From assembly GCF_048403405.1 (NCBI RefSeq), contig NZ_CP183129.1: a stretch of DNA of 64,000 nucleotides. The stretch is one strand, 5' to 3'. Of this stretch, positions 60,156-62,604 are shown piece after piece. Position 1 is the first letter of the stretch. Every line of letters begins with the position of its first letter. The notes under the pieces are model-generated. The model ran no database searches and was not told where the DNA came from. It saw only the letters and a program-made list of their open reading frames with translations. The translations under genes were made by a program, and so were the position numbers. Origin of the DNA: Escherichia coli. Its GTDB lineage: Bacteria > Pseudomonadota > Gammaproteobacteria > Enterobacterales > Enterobacteriaceae.

Positions 60156-60636
60156 TGTTAGGTATTTTAGACGTTACTAGATTAAAAAGCATTAGTTCAG
60201 GAGTGAATTGACATTCTCATTTTTCATGGCACAGGGTAGATCTGGCGTGGTTGTCCGCTTTGTGCCAACAGCGGACGTTACTAACGAAACTGTGAGTTAA
60301 AAACGGGAGCTGGTCACCTCCATCCCGCGAAATGGAATTCAAAAATGCCCTCATGTACGGTACTTCTAGTCTGATGTGAGCATTTTCGTGGATTTTTTCG
60401 AGCCACTCCAACGAATGATTACATTCAGTTTCGGGCACTAAAACGTCATAAATCCGCAAGTTGAGGAGTAGCGATCAGCCAATTGGTTAAAAAACAGCTT
60501 TAATTCCCTTTTTCAAGCAGGCTCCTTGTCGCACGTCTGGTGCATCCAATTCATTTCAGTTACCCTGATGCCATACTGGCACGGACTAGCTCTCTTAATT
60601 GGCGCTGGTTTGTTAACCTTGTCCGCTGTCGGGTCT

Positions 60637-60664
60637 TTGTAAGTTGTAATTCCTAAACTAGCAT
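60637..60664 (+). promoter_or_regulatory. Candidate promoter for the RSH gene (TTGTAA-16-TAGCAT)
   Basis: Read by eye. aagg lies 9 nt upstream of the ATG at 60689. Confidence 0.3.
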
Positions 60665-60688
60665 AATTTTATTATAAGGCCTCTTACT

Positions 60689-61714
60689 ATGCACATTTTA
60701 TCTGTTTCAAAAAAGGAAGTTGGAAGAGCTGGGGATAGATTAGTTTCTCAGTTTGGTACAGGTGAAAAATATAAAGAGGAAGATGTACAAATTCTTCATG
60801 AGTGGAGGATGTTGCATTTATATCCTTTAAGTAAAATACAATTTTATATGGAAAGAGAGGCTATTTCCTTAAACAAAAATGCGTTACTATCCTCTAGAAT
60901 TAAGAGGATGCCTTCCATTGTTACTAAGCTTTCTAGATTTCCTGATATGAAGTTAAATAAGATGCAGGATCTTGGTGGGTGCCGGGCTATTTTAAATAAT
61001 CTGGATCAAGTGTATGATTTAGTTAATAAAATAAAATCATCTAAATTCTCACATGAACTAGTTAGAATGGATGATTACATGATAGACGTGAAAGATTCTG
61101 GTTATAGAAGCTTTCATATGGTCTATTCATTCCAAAATAAAAAATTTCCATCTTTAAATGGGTTGCGCATTGAAATGCAAATAAGAACAGCTATTCAACA
61201 TAGCTGGGCTACAGCAGTTGAAATGGTTGGTTTGTTTCGAAAGGAATCATTGAAATCTGGTTTTGGTGATGCAAGATGGCTTAGGTTTTTTGAATTGGTA
61301 TCAGAGCTTTTTTATAAACTTGAGTATGAAAAAGAACCATCTGGGAGTTATATAAAAATATCAGAAGAATTAAGTTATTTATCCGTCGAGTTGAATGTTT
61401 TCGATATATTAGCTGCTTACAATGCCGTAGTTAGCCATATTGAGGGTAGCAAAAAATATGATAAAGGACTTTGCATAATTGTTGTTGATACCATAAAGCG
61501 GAATATAAATATAAAGAGCTTCGAAAATCACAATCATGCGAAGGCGGCAGAAGCTTATGTCGAGTCTGAAAAATACTGCGCGGAAAATAAAGGCTGTGAA
61601 GTGGCTATGGTTTCTGTTAGTTCAATTAGTGAATTAAAAAATGCATATCCTGCTTACTTTTTAGATACGAAAACTTTTTTAAATTATCTCAGTAGGTATG
61701 TTTTTATAAAATAA
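60689..61714 (+). CDS. RelA/SpoT-homolog synthetase-domain protein: toxSAS / CapRel-like fused toxin-antitoxin candidate
   Basis: 341 aa. Motifs in canonical order are R70-I-K-R-M-P-S-I-V-T-K80 (RxKxxxSxxxK), D94-L-G-G-C-R99 (DxxGxR), G138-Y-R-S-F-H143 (GYRSxH) and E162-M-Q-I-R-T-A-I-Q-H-S-W-A174 (ExQxRTxxxHxWA). The C-terminal residues from about 216 to 341 have no motif I recognise. The gene is strongly AT-rich relative to its flanks and has no adjacent partner ORF. Confidence 0.85.
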   Translation: MHILSVSKKEVGRAGDRLVSQFGTGEKYKEEDVQILHEWRMLHLYPLSKIQFYMEREAISLNKNALLSSRIKRMPSIVTKLSRFPDMKLNKMQDLGGCRAILNNLDQVYDLVNKIKSSKFSHELVRMDDYMIDVKDSGYRSFHMVYSFQNKKFPSLNGLRIEMQIRTAIQHSWATAVEMVGLFRKESLKSGFGDARWLRFFELVSELFYKLEYEKEPSGSYIKISEELSYLSVELNVFDILAAYNAVVSHIEGSKKYDKGLCIIVVDTIKRNINIKSFENHNHAKAAEAYVESEKYCAENKGCEVAMVSVSSISELKNAYPAYFLDTKTFLNYLSRYVFIK

Positions 61715-62147
61715 AAAATGTTATCTGGAGTGGTCTGAATTCTACTAACTTAGTTTTTTCAGACCGCTTCTGACCACAATGGCCTGTGAGGTTCTGCTGC
61801 TAGTCAACATAAAATAACAAAGCCGGCAGGTGGTGGTTGTTGTAAAGTTATTCAATGACATTCATGGAGGCTTAAGCGAATTATTTGTCCCTGGTCGGTA
61901 TGGTGGCAACAGCTTGTTGCGAGAATTTGGCTAATTTGGACTGACTTCCGCTCCTTGCTCAAAGCGGACTAGAAGGTTAGCTTGTGTCGGACTTTGCGTA
62001 TTAAAAGAAGTGCTGGTGGTGACTAGTGGTTGAGCCCCATTTCCACAGAAAAAATCAGAGAAACTATACCCAATAGTTGTATTGAATCACTGACGAGACA
62101 GCCTCATATTCATCAGGACTGGTGTACGTCCAATACAGGAGGTTGTG

Positions 62148-62237
62148 GTGCTGGTTCTCAAATGTGCGCTGGCTATTACGGCTGTAATGGCGATTTATTG
62201 TCTTGCTATTGTTCTTATGGATCGCCTTTCTGACTGA
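62148..62237 (+). CDS. Candidate 29-aa hydrophobic peptide (type I toxin-like)
   Basis: AGGAGG at 62137-62142, a 5-nt spacer, then a GTG at 62148. The product is MLVLKCALAITAVMAIYCLAIVLMDRLSD then stop. Not in the ORF track because it is under 60 aa. Confidence 0.4.
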   Translation: MLVLKCALAITAVMAIYCLAIVLMDRLSD

Positions 62238-62277
62238 TTTCATATTGGCGAGGTAAAGGTAGTTAAGTAGAATGGCT

Positions 62278-62291
62278 GCGGGTGCTTGAGG
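62278..62291 (+). promoter_or_regulatory. hok mRNA 5-prime element (tac-like) complementary to the 3-prime fbi-like element
   Basis: gcgggtgcttgagg pairs with cctcaacgcacccgc at 62654-62668, with one bulge. Confidence 0.6.
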
Positions 62292-62334
62292 CTATCTGCC
62301 TCGGGCATGAACACCAAAGGCAGATAGAGAAAAG

Positions 62335-62400
62335 CCCCAGTTAACATTACGCGTCCTGCAAGACGCTTAACATTAATCTGAGGCCAATTTCATGCTAGAC
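62335..62400 (-). ncRNA. sokD: Putative Sok-type antisense RNA
   Basis: A minus-strand promoter-like TTGCCT (62435-62430), 17-nt spacer, TAACCT (62412-62407) would start an antisense transcript across the hok leader. The extent is a guess. Confidence 0.3.
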
Positions 62401-62448
62401 ACATGTAGGTTAGCCTCTTACGTGCCGGAAGGCAAGGAGAAGCAGGCT

Positions 62449-62604
62449 ATGAAGCAGCAAAAGGCGATGTTAATCGCCCTGATCGTCATCTGTTTAACCG
62501 TCATAGTGACGGCACTGGTAACGAGGAAAGACCTCTGCGAGGTACGAATCCGAACCGGCCAGACGGAGGTCGCTGTCTTCACAGCTTACGAACCTGAGGA
62601 GTAA
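62449..62604 (+). CDS. hokD: Hok-family type I toxin (HokD/RelF)
   Basis: The ATG at 62449 gives 51 aa, MKQQKAMLIALIVICLTVIVTALVTRKDLCEVRIRTGQTEVAVFTAYEPEE, which matches recalled HokD. The ORF track shows an in-frame upstream ATG at 62392 (70 aa). Confidence 0.9.
   Translation: MKQQKAMLIALIVICLTVIVTALVTRKDLCEVRIRTGQTEVAVFTAYEPEE

Follow-up and report, generated by a model that had tools for sequence, protein, structure and literature searches.

A 29-codon reading frame under purifying selection beside hok in Qin-like prophages of Escherichia coli, a probable gene for a small membrane peptide

Introduction

Tiny hydrophobic peptides with one predicted transmembrane (TM) helix recur in several described systems. 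Type I toxins, such as Hok/Gef, Ldr, Ibs, TisB, ShoB, DinQ and ZorO, combine such a peptide and its charged tail with an antitoxin RNA, a long structured leader and a sequestered ribosome-binding site, to which Hok adds an overlapping mok-type frame and fold-back elements. Small membrane proteins such as MgtS, AcrZ, PmrR and YohP measure at most 50 amino acids (aa) and have their own Shine-Dalgarno sequence and start codon but no antisense partner, and their genes, usually missed by annotation pipelines, are recognised via frame conservation. A third point of comparison is given by the lambdoid morons (bor and lom of lambda) and the Qin small proteins YnfR, YmcF/YnfQ and DicB, which are products of accessory genes with an apparent promoter of their own in the early-right region. 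Here we analyze a 29-codon open reading frame (ORF) in a 64,000-nucleotide (nt) stretch of Escherichia coli (contig NZ_CP183129.1 of assembly GCF_048403405.1; this whole stretch is called the window below), where it is carried by a Qin-like lambdoid prophage directly beside a hok/sok locus. Our results indicate that this short ORF is probably a real, translated, stand-alone accessory gene of Qin-like prophages whose product is predicted to be a single-pass inner-membrane peptide, and our confidence that the gene is real is higher than our confidence in this account as a whole.

Results

A short ORF behind a consensus Shine-Dalgarno sequence

The short ORF overlaps a longer one in a different frame, and a preliminary description of the window had drawn attention to both, with positions that proved exact in every case:

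62148..62237, plus strand: 29-codon ORF, GTG start at 62148, TGA stop at 62235-62237; product MLVLKCALAITAVMAIYCLAIVLMDRLSD, a predicted single-pass membrane peptide
62137..62142, plus strand: Shine-Dalgarno sequence AGGAGG, 5 nt upstream of GTG 62148
62030..62233, plus strand: 67-codon ORF with a TTG start and a Cys/Gly-rich product, overlapping the 29-codon ORF in another frame; not a gene

Two GTG codons follow the AGGAGG, at 62145 and 62148, the second of which opens the 29-codon ORF. The window holds 12 AGGAGG hexamers on its two strands, 3 of them with a start codon 4-9 nt downstream, and among these 3 the one at 62137-62142 alone combines a 5-nt spacing with a hydrophobic product. This succession of AGGAGG, GTG and hydrophobic ORF exceeds chance, and conservation in the 29-codon frame is the decisive point. 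The 29-aa peptide has a grand average of hydropathy (GRAVY) of 1.74 and a best 19-residue Kyte-Doolittle window of 2.58 at residues 6-24, so that the single TM helix with a charged tail described earlier holds as a prediction: the product is modeled as one strongly hydrophobic helix followed by a short charged tail.

Coding constraint acts on only one of the two overlapping frames

The preliminary description had preferred the short peptide to the 67-aa ORF, and had named as checks a frame-by-frame comparison of synonymous and non-synonymous changes and a search for otherwise conserved homologues with a broken 29-codon frame. Homologous loci were assembled in two samples, one of 120 viral-contig loci retrieved with a search pattern in the C-terminal half of the ORF and one of 91 metagenome loci retrieved with a pattern spanning the Shine-Dalgarno sequence and the codons of the N-terminus. 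Because these samples are anchored at opposite ends, each half of the ORF could be judged on a sample unshaped by the search pattern. The 29-codon ORF is intact in 121/123 copies of the C-terminally anchored set and, with its stop position unchanged, in 94/97 copies of the N-terminally anchored set, or in total about 215 of 220 copies on viral and metagenome contigs.

Substitutions within the ORF follow its codons. Variable sites in codons 2-14 are distributed 4/1/11 over the three codon positions, compared with 17/19/14 by phase in the 66 nt 5' of the short ORF, where there is no codon periodicity. Codons 2-14 carry 13 synonymous vs. 5 non-synonymous alleles (P = 1.4e-4), and codons 10-29 carry 11 synonymous vs. 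14 non-synonymous alleles (P = 0.025, synonymous sites being 24%), all binomial P values that overstate independence since the sequences are related, with statistical power further limited by the shortness of the ORF. The ratio of non-synonymous to synonymous polymorphism (pN/pS) among homologues is 0.24 in the short frame, vs. 0.9-1.7 in the other frames open across the ORF, and it is 0.28 when the short frame is compared with a diverged copy on the Shigella virulence plasmid pINV. Coding constraint is present in only one of two overlapping frames, the short one. Conservation, codon periodicity and pN/pS all favor the 29-codon frame, and the earlier preference for the short peptide stands.

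The only decayed lineage (L060/L093) carries a 2-nt deletion that frameshifts the short ORF, and it has also lost the expression signals described below, with AGGAGG changed to AGAAAG, CATATT to TGTATT and TTGAAT to TCTCAT. Joint loss of frame, Shine-Dalgarno sequence and promoter is as expected if all three serve one gene.

The suggested dual-frame coding did not hold up, nor did the idea of a genuine bacteriocin-like gene in the 67-aa Cys/Gly-rich ORF, whether by itself or dual-coding with the short ORF, which we regard as close to refuted. This frame is open over 36-137 codons in many loci, and older annotation pipelines recorded its product as a hypothetical protein on about 467 contigs. 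Against this, its pN/pS is 1.72 among homologues and 4.9 vs. pINV, and upstream of the overlap its variable sites show the same 17/19/14 distribution by phase given above. Allele groups differ by a 1-nt indel that shifts its N-terminus, it shrinks to at most 27 codons in about 13 diverged loci, and on pINV no long ORF overlaps the short one and the 67-codon ORF is absent. Neither a conserved start nor a conserved Shine-Dalgarno sequence was seen for it across lineages, in line with the earlier remark that it lacks a convincing Shine-Dalgarno sequence, and its product matches no family except for a weak PHROG hit (E = 0.019). The frame stays open because its third codon positions coincide with second positions in the short frame, which are mostly T or C and give no stops; the Cys/Gly/Ser/Tyr richness had been correctly read as hydrophobic codons translated out of frame.

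Current RefSeq annotation no longer includes the 67-codon ORF. We observed a gap of exactly one locus_tag between the cargo gene and hokD in strain 104 (L131, RS16595 to RS16605) and in O55:H7 DEC5D (L223, RS09615 to RS09625), and the skipped tag suggests that an earlier ORF call at this position was withdrawn on re-annotation.

Other readings of the same DNA were tried and set aside. A Cys-rich ribosomal peptide or bacteriocin precursor encoded by the 67-aa ORF is rejected on the pN/pS values of 1.72 and 4.9, the shifted or truncated frame and the missing upstream periodicity. A 59-codon minus-strand ORF (62064-62243), annotated in phage HannyBb, has a pN/pS of 0.89. On the minus strand, the frame whose wobble positions are those of the short frame has a pN/pS of 0.32, and it is not open throughout, the only ORF listed in it having 24 codons (62087-62161).

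Start codon, Shine-Dalgarno sequence and candidate promoter

Position 62148 is the sole start position common to all lineages (GTG, or ATG at that position on pINV), confirming the start chosen earlier; the codon at 62145 reads TCG, CCG, ATC or ATT elsewhere, and most lineages have no start codon there. With two exceptions (AGAAGA in L026 and one unexamined cluster), the intact lineages shown have AGGAG(G/A), GGGAGG or AGGGGG as their Shine-Dalgarno sequence, and pINV has retained it as well; the mutation to AGAAAG is confined to the frameshifted L060/L093 copy. Upstream of it lie two further features:

62082..62110, plus strand: candidate sigma-70 promoter, with -35 TTGAAT at 62082-62087, a 17-nt spacer and -10 CATATT at 62105-62110
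62125..62130, plus strand: invariant TACGTC block in the leader, 5' of the Shine-Dalgarno sequence and 3' of the -10 hexamer

From this candidate promoter, transcription is predicted to start near 62117, which would give a leader of about 30 nt. A promoter-like site is found at the equal position in 16/19 sequence lineages. In the L004, L008 and L120 types, phage HannyBb and pINV, the site consists of TTGAA(T/G), TTGATT or TTGAGT, exactly 17 nt and CATATT, with 7-9 of the 17 spacer positions differing, and CATATT is unchanged across 46 distinct sequences. Almost every lineage, BL21 and pINV among them, has retained the TACGTC block, though neighboring bases vary.

In loci where the -35 hexamer or the whole promoter has been lost, the ORF must use read-through transcription from the early-right operon. 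This bears on the alternative that the gene is real but belongs to the lytic cycle, expressed by early-right (pR) read-through and serving phage development or lysis timing rather than the lysogen. Alleles without the -35 hexamer or the promoter (including those of BL21 and O55:H7) do keep the ORF intact, and the ORF always has early-right orientation, between the replication genes and the rem-ydfU-Q region. Purifying selection is nevertheless seen in widespread Qin-like prophages and on pINV, where phage development is absent, and the promoter hexamers are conserved in most lineages, so we give this lytic role only a slim chance.

Distribution of the short ORF

The DNA of 61990-62250 is present in 1973/5426 complete E. 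coli genomes, with 2276 places in all; it is nearly always unannotated, and most copies are more than 90% identical. The NCBI Prokaryotic Genome Annotation Pipeline (PGAP) did call the 29-codon ORF in strain ET826, as hypothetical protein WP_000960667.1. An exact look-up placed this sequence on 650 contigs, with other records giving it as a putative membrane protein, and several further variants of the peptide exist in public collections under the names "hypothetical protein" or "putative membrane protein". In a pattern scan of one genome per species, the ORF was found only in E. albertii, E. ruysiae and S. flexneri, plus 3 contigs of metagenome-assembled genomes labeled as other genera. A phmmer search against 1.84 billion representative proteins returned near-identical copies only and no homologue of the peptide below 83% identity, a pattern scan of viral contigs for variants without Cys6 found none, and the most distant homologue from phmmer and from tblastn against plasmids had about 72% identity.

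The most diverged copy, found by tblastn at 72% identity and 77% identical in the pN/pS comparison given above, lies on 135 virulence plasmids of Shigella and enteroinvasive E. coli (EIEC). In S. flexneri M90T pWR100 (NZ_CP037924.1) it occupies 90911-90997 on the minus strand, about 260 nt upstream of icsP. This copy encodes MLVLKGTLAIAAVMTIYCLIVVLMERFSD in 29 codons, with an ATG start, AGGAGG 5 nt upstream and TTGAGT-17-CATATT. Homology between pINV and the window spans about 62036-62330 and then ends; because it stops at about 62330, hok has been lost from pINV. The region directly upstream of icsP (L225 2900-3350; NZ_CP037924.1, about 90650-91100) is a relic of the prophage module that includes the short ORF, and it also retains a hok-type promoter remnant, TTGGCG-17-TAGAAT (L225 3098-3128), directed towards icsP, together with the first ~50 nt of the hok leader.

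Two laboratory lineages differ from this picture. K-12 does not have the short ORF: homology between K-12 Qin and the window starts at 62435, and the DNA upstream of hokD is replaced by relBE, an insertion described by Ramisetty and Sudhakari (PMC6379469). The peptide is missing from K-12 small-protein surveys because K-12 lacks the ORF. In BL21 (L003 1204-1563, NZ_CP010816.1), a deletion has fused a DUF977 gene onto the module at a point about 20 nt upstream of the Shine-Dalgarno sequence, and the short ORF, with its GTG at about 1560689 on the minus strand, overlaps the 3' end of the DUF977 gene out of frame; because of this fusion, the DUF977 protein ends in third-frame residues of the small-ORF region.

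The short ORF is separable from hok and borders a cargo slot

The short ORF forms the last third of a conserved module, which we list here with its neighbors:

61945..62250, no strand assigned: conserved module, about 300 nt long, that forms the unchanging right-hand side of a slot with variable cargo
60689-61714, plus strand: RelA/SpoT-domain gene, 341 aa, upstream of the 29-codon ORF
62245-62273: promoter-like site of the hok locus, downstream of the 29-codon ORF
62280-62454: sok/hok leader, Rfam model, 117 bits, 3' of the 29-codon ORF
62449-62604: HokD coding sequence, part of a complete hok locus

After hok follow rem, ydfU and the Q antiterminator gene. The placement of the short ORF between an RSH gene and hok, as first described, is accurate: the upstream 341-aa protein matches Pfam RelA_SpoT and also PDC-S33 of PADLOC, a candidate single-gene defense system, over its full length (E = 5e-119).

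Module boundaries are visible in the alignments. Left ends of BLAST matches cluster at 61940-61959 in 105/130 loci, and right ends fall at 62240-62260 in 19 loci without hok, elsewhere continuing through hok. These 19 hok-less loci keep the ORF beside a convergent TehB-like gene. On pINV the ORF is present and hok deleted, and K-12 has hokD and no ORF; the ORF and hok are separable, since the hok-less loci, pINV and K-12 each hold one without the other. In M114 (L004 1660-1730) and about 18 similar loci, the intrinsic terminator of the TehB-like gene (a stem and T8, minus strand) stands about 12 nt past the ORF stop, and read-through of this convergent gene would be antisense to the ORF.

At its left end the module contains two overlapping hairpins, TCCGCT...AGCGGA at 61947-61968 and AAGCGGAC...GTTAGCTT at 61962-61983, with paired changes in some alleles (e.g., AAGCCAAC...GTTGGCTT in L073). 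No T-run follows either of them, and they are not obvious terminators; the hairpins of 61947-61983 might mark a recombination boundary.

Left of the module, the nearest large upstream ORF falls into 49 clusters in 152 loci (L005-L211). The slot spans about 60200-61945 in the window, bordered by 61945-62250, and its PADLOC matches include a retron-type RT-Toprim I-C (E = 3e-221), a dCTP deaminase (8e-169), an Old/AriA/GajA-like ATPase-nuclease (1e-55), SIR2-like proteins and the PDC-S33 protein of the window. Its contents vary from a SIR2 gene in O55:H7 to relBE in K-12 and QueH in M114. The short ORF, usually together with hok, is the constant right border of a defense-gene hotspot.

One alternative is that the ORF is fortuitous and that its DNA is conserved because it regulates hok from upstream, because it serves as a flank for recombination in cargo exchange, or through recent common descent. 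The module is indeed the fixed border of a recombining slot, about 200 nt of ORF-free DNA upstream are likewise conserved, and the majority of copies are more than 90% identical. Against this, substitution periodicity is confined to the ORF and its frame and missing from the flanks, the start and its optimally spaced Shine-Dalgarno sequence are kept, with a change from GTG to ATG on pINV, the stop holds its position in 94 of the 97 copies of the sample that is unbiased for it, and loci without hok retain the ORF. We consider a fortuitous ORF quite improbable.

Relation to type I toxins

The preliminary description had likened the short peptide to type I toxins (Fst, Ibs and Zor-like) and counted it as a possible third toxin within 2 kb. 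The peptide matches nothing in Pfam, NCBIfam and PHROGs up to E = 10, nor in PADLOC up to E = 0.01. Membership in the Hok/Gef family finds no support either, as the 29-aa peptide has no Pfam match and the sok/hok leader begins at 62280, past the ORF. Rfam gave no hit on either strand of 62000-62280, the nearest being the sok/hok match at 62280-62454.

Folding of both strands gave a stability no better than that of shuffled sequence, with z-scores of 0.11 for 62117-62260 and 0.41 for the whole module, and no long or stably folded leader was found, the predicted one having about 30 nt. The lone local stem over the start codon is G-U-rich and unconserved, and a common G-to-C allele would break one of its pairs. 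No repeat of at least 9 nt that would give trans complementarity was found.

Three candidate elements were examined and rejected. The M114 lineage has not kept a terminator-like hairpin that lies within the ORF at 62172-62191; the 8-nt match GTGCTGGT shared by about 62012 and 62148 is of a kind expected by chance and is missing from diverged lineages; and an 11-nt inverted repeat (62096-62106/62287-62297) lies upstream of the predicted transcription start.

Two promoter-like sites on the minus strand could in principle supply a regulatory RNA:

62063-62090, minus strand: divergent promoter-like site GTGATT-16-TATAGT; -10 at 62068 to 62063, -35 sharing bases with the -35 of the ORF promoter
62237-62266, minus strand: cis-antisense promoter-like site TTAACT-18-TAAAAT, a 9/12 match, in alleles with T at 62241

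The divergent site is found in 10/19 lineages, is readable on pINV as CTGACT-16-TATAGT and is absent from the L004, L008 and L120 types; the sequence 3' of it is conserved for about 20 nt only, with no conserved small-RNA body. The cis-antisense site arises in alleles that read TGATTTTATATTGG after the stop, and its RNA would be antisense to the entire short ORF, but only 3/19 lineages have it, and neither the window nor pINV nor the hok-less loci do. Across the 19 lineages, no conserved promoter for an antisense or divergent RNA was found.

A further alternative is a new type I toxin-antitoxin system with this peptide as its toxin, lethal unless an unrecognised antisense or divergent small RNA blocks its translation. 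Its size and architecture are typical (29 aa, one predicted TM helix and a charged tail), it adjoins hok at the edge of a slot rich in defense and toxin-antitoxin genes, the divergent site recurs in the lineages just given and on pINV, and some alleles could produce a cis-antisense RNA from the site past the stop. Set against these points are the unmatched toxin families in all four databases, the failure of either minus-strand site to be kept across lineages, the conservation of only about 20 nt past the divergent one, the lack of repeats of at least 9 nt to support trans complementarity, and the short leader with fold z-scores of 0.1 to 0.4. Because the module ends about 15 nt past the stop codon, there is also no room for an antisense promoter of its own, and on pINV the ORF survives alone after losing its flanks. 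We judge this alternative unlikely. The assignment to type I toxins was not upheld, given that no family match, no conserved promoter for an antisense or divergent RNA and no unusually long or stable leader were found, and the third toxin within 2 kb is a conjecture because that assignment is unsupported. We do not file the short ORF as a type I toxin, while allowing that the peptide may act in a membrane-toxin-like manner.

Discussion

Taken as a probable stand-alone accessory gene, the short ORF would work as follows. A weak sigma-70 promoter (TTGAAT-17-CATATT) would start an mRNA with a ~30-nt leader, on which the consensus Shine-Dalgarno sequence 5 nt before the GTG would drive translation of a 29-residue peptide. 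This peptide would place one helix (residues 6-24) in the inner membrane, flanked by a short Lys-containing N-terminus and a D/E-R-x-S-D tail, and might serve there as a small protein with an accessory or regulatory role, or at the most perturb the membrane mildly. How much of the peptide is made would depend on the weak promoter and the non-AUG start rather than on a dedicated antisense RNA, and its function would be independent of hok. The analysis shows the ORF itself, the conservation of its Shine-Dalgarno sequence and start codon, selection of the coding type, the edges of the module and the range of taxa; the promoter with its transcription start, membrane insertion and the mode of action are inferred.

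Several points weigh against this account, in addition to the statistical limits given with the P values. The candidate promoter matches 8/12 consensus positions and was overlooked by a default scan; its -35 hexamer is missing in alleles of the L017/L018 type (TCTCAT), a recombination junction lies within its spacer in L049 and O55:H7, and BL21 is without the entire promoter. The C-terminal half of the ORF is less constrained than the N-terminal half, as the allele counts for codons 10-29 indicate, and Cys6 of the peptide is replaced on pINV. The family is young and narrow, no homologue below about 72% identity having been found, and its conservation comes partly from recent common descent. 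Toxicity or an unrecognised RNA regulator would be compatible with the computation. Neither a peptide variant nor WP_000960667 was found in searchable papers and supplements, and there was no peptide match in the searchable text of a CFT073 small-protein preprint, a BL21 Ribo-RET preprint (bioRxiv 10.1101/520783), the MetaRibo-Seq paper and a paper on overlooked genes of Shigella.

A more far-reaching proposal is that the peptide is the first of a new family of toxins or effectors that act on membranes, under non-classical control (e.g., H-NS silencing or activation only upon phage infection), and that it and hok jointly make up a fixed "executioner" border of the defense hotspot or a retention module that stabilizes the adjoining cargo. 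We think this distinctly improbable; should the peptide prove toxic or defense-related, it would represent a new family with unusual regulation. A conserved protein-coding gene in about one third of complete E. coli genomes and on the Shigella/EIEC virulence plasmid is almost always left out of current RefSeq annotation, and it extends by one candidate the short list of small membrane proteins encoded by prophages. The pair of short ORF and hok provides a practical landmark for mining the anti-phage defense-gene slot, and the locus illustrates that codon-position analysis can decide between two overlapping candidate ORFs. The short ORF is useful for annotation and as a hotspot landmark, and it is not surprising to specialists.

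Compared with known systems, the short ORF shares with the type I toxins the tiny hydrophobic peptide, its one predicted TM helix and charged tail, and a place on a mobile element directly beside a genuine hok/sok locus. It differs from them in that no sequence match, conserved antitoxin RNA, long structured leader or sequestered ribosome-binding site was found, and from Hok in particular in having neither an overlapping mok-type frame nor fold-back elements. With MgtS, AcrZ, PmrR and YohP it has in common the small size, a single TM helix (predicted here), an own Shine-Dalgarno sequence and start, the missing antisense partner and the usual neglect by annotation pipelines, and it shows what marks genes of this kind, namely a conserved ORF with its Shine-Dalgarno sequence and start codon under purifying selection. 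Those proteins, however, are encoded by core or regulon genes of the chromosome, and their partners or inducing signals are known, whereas this peptide is confined to prophages and one plasmid, in Escherichia and Shigella only. Like bor, lom, YnfR, YmcF/YnfQ and DicB, finally, it appears as an accessory gene of the early-right region with an apparent promoter of its own, and it is also retained in defective prophages; it is unrelated to these proteins in sequence and is absent from K-12 Qin, where relBE is found instead (PMC6379469).

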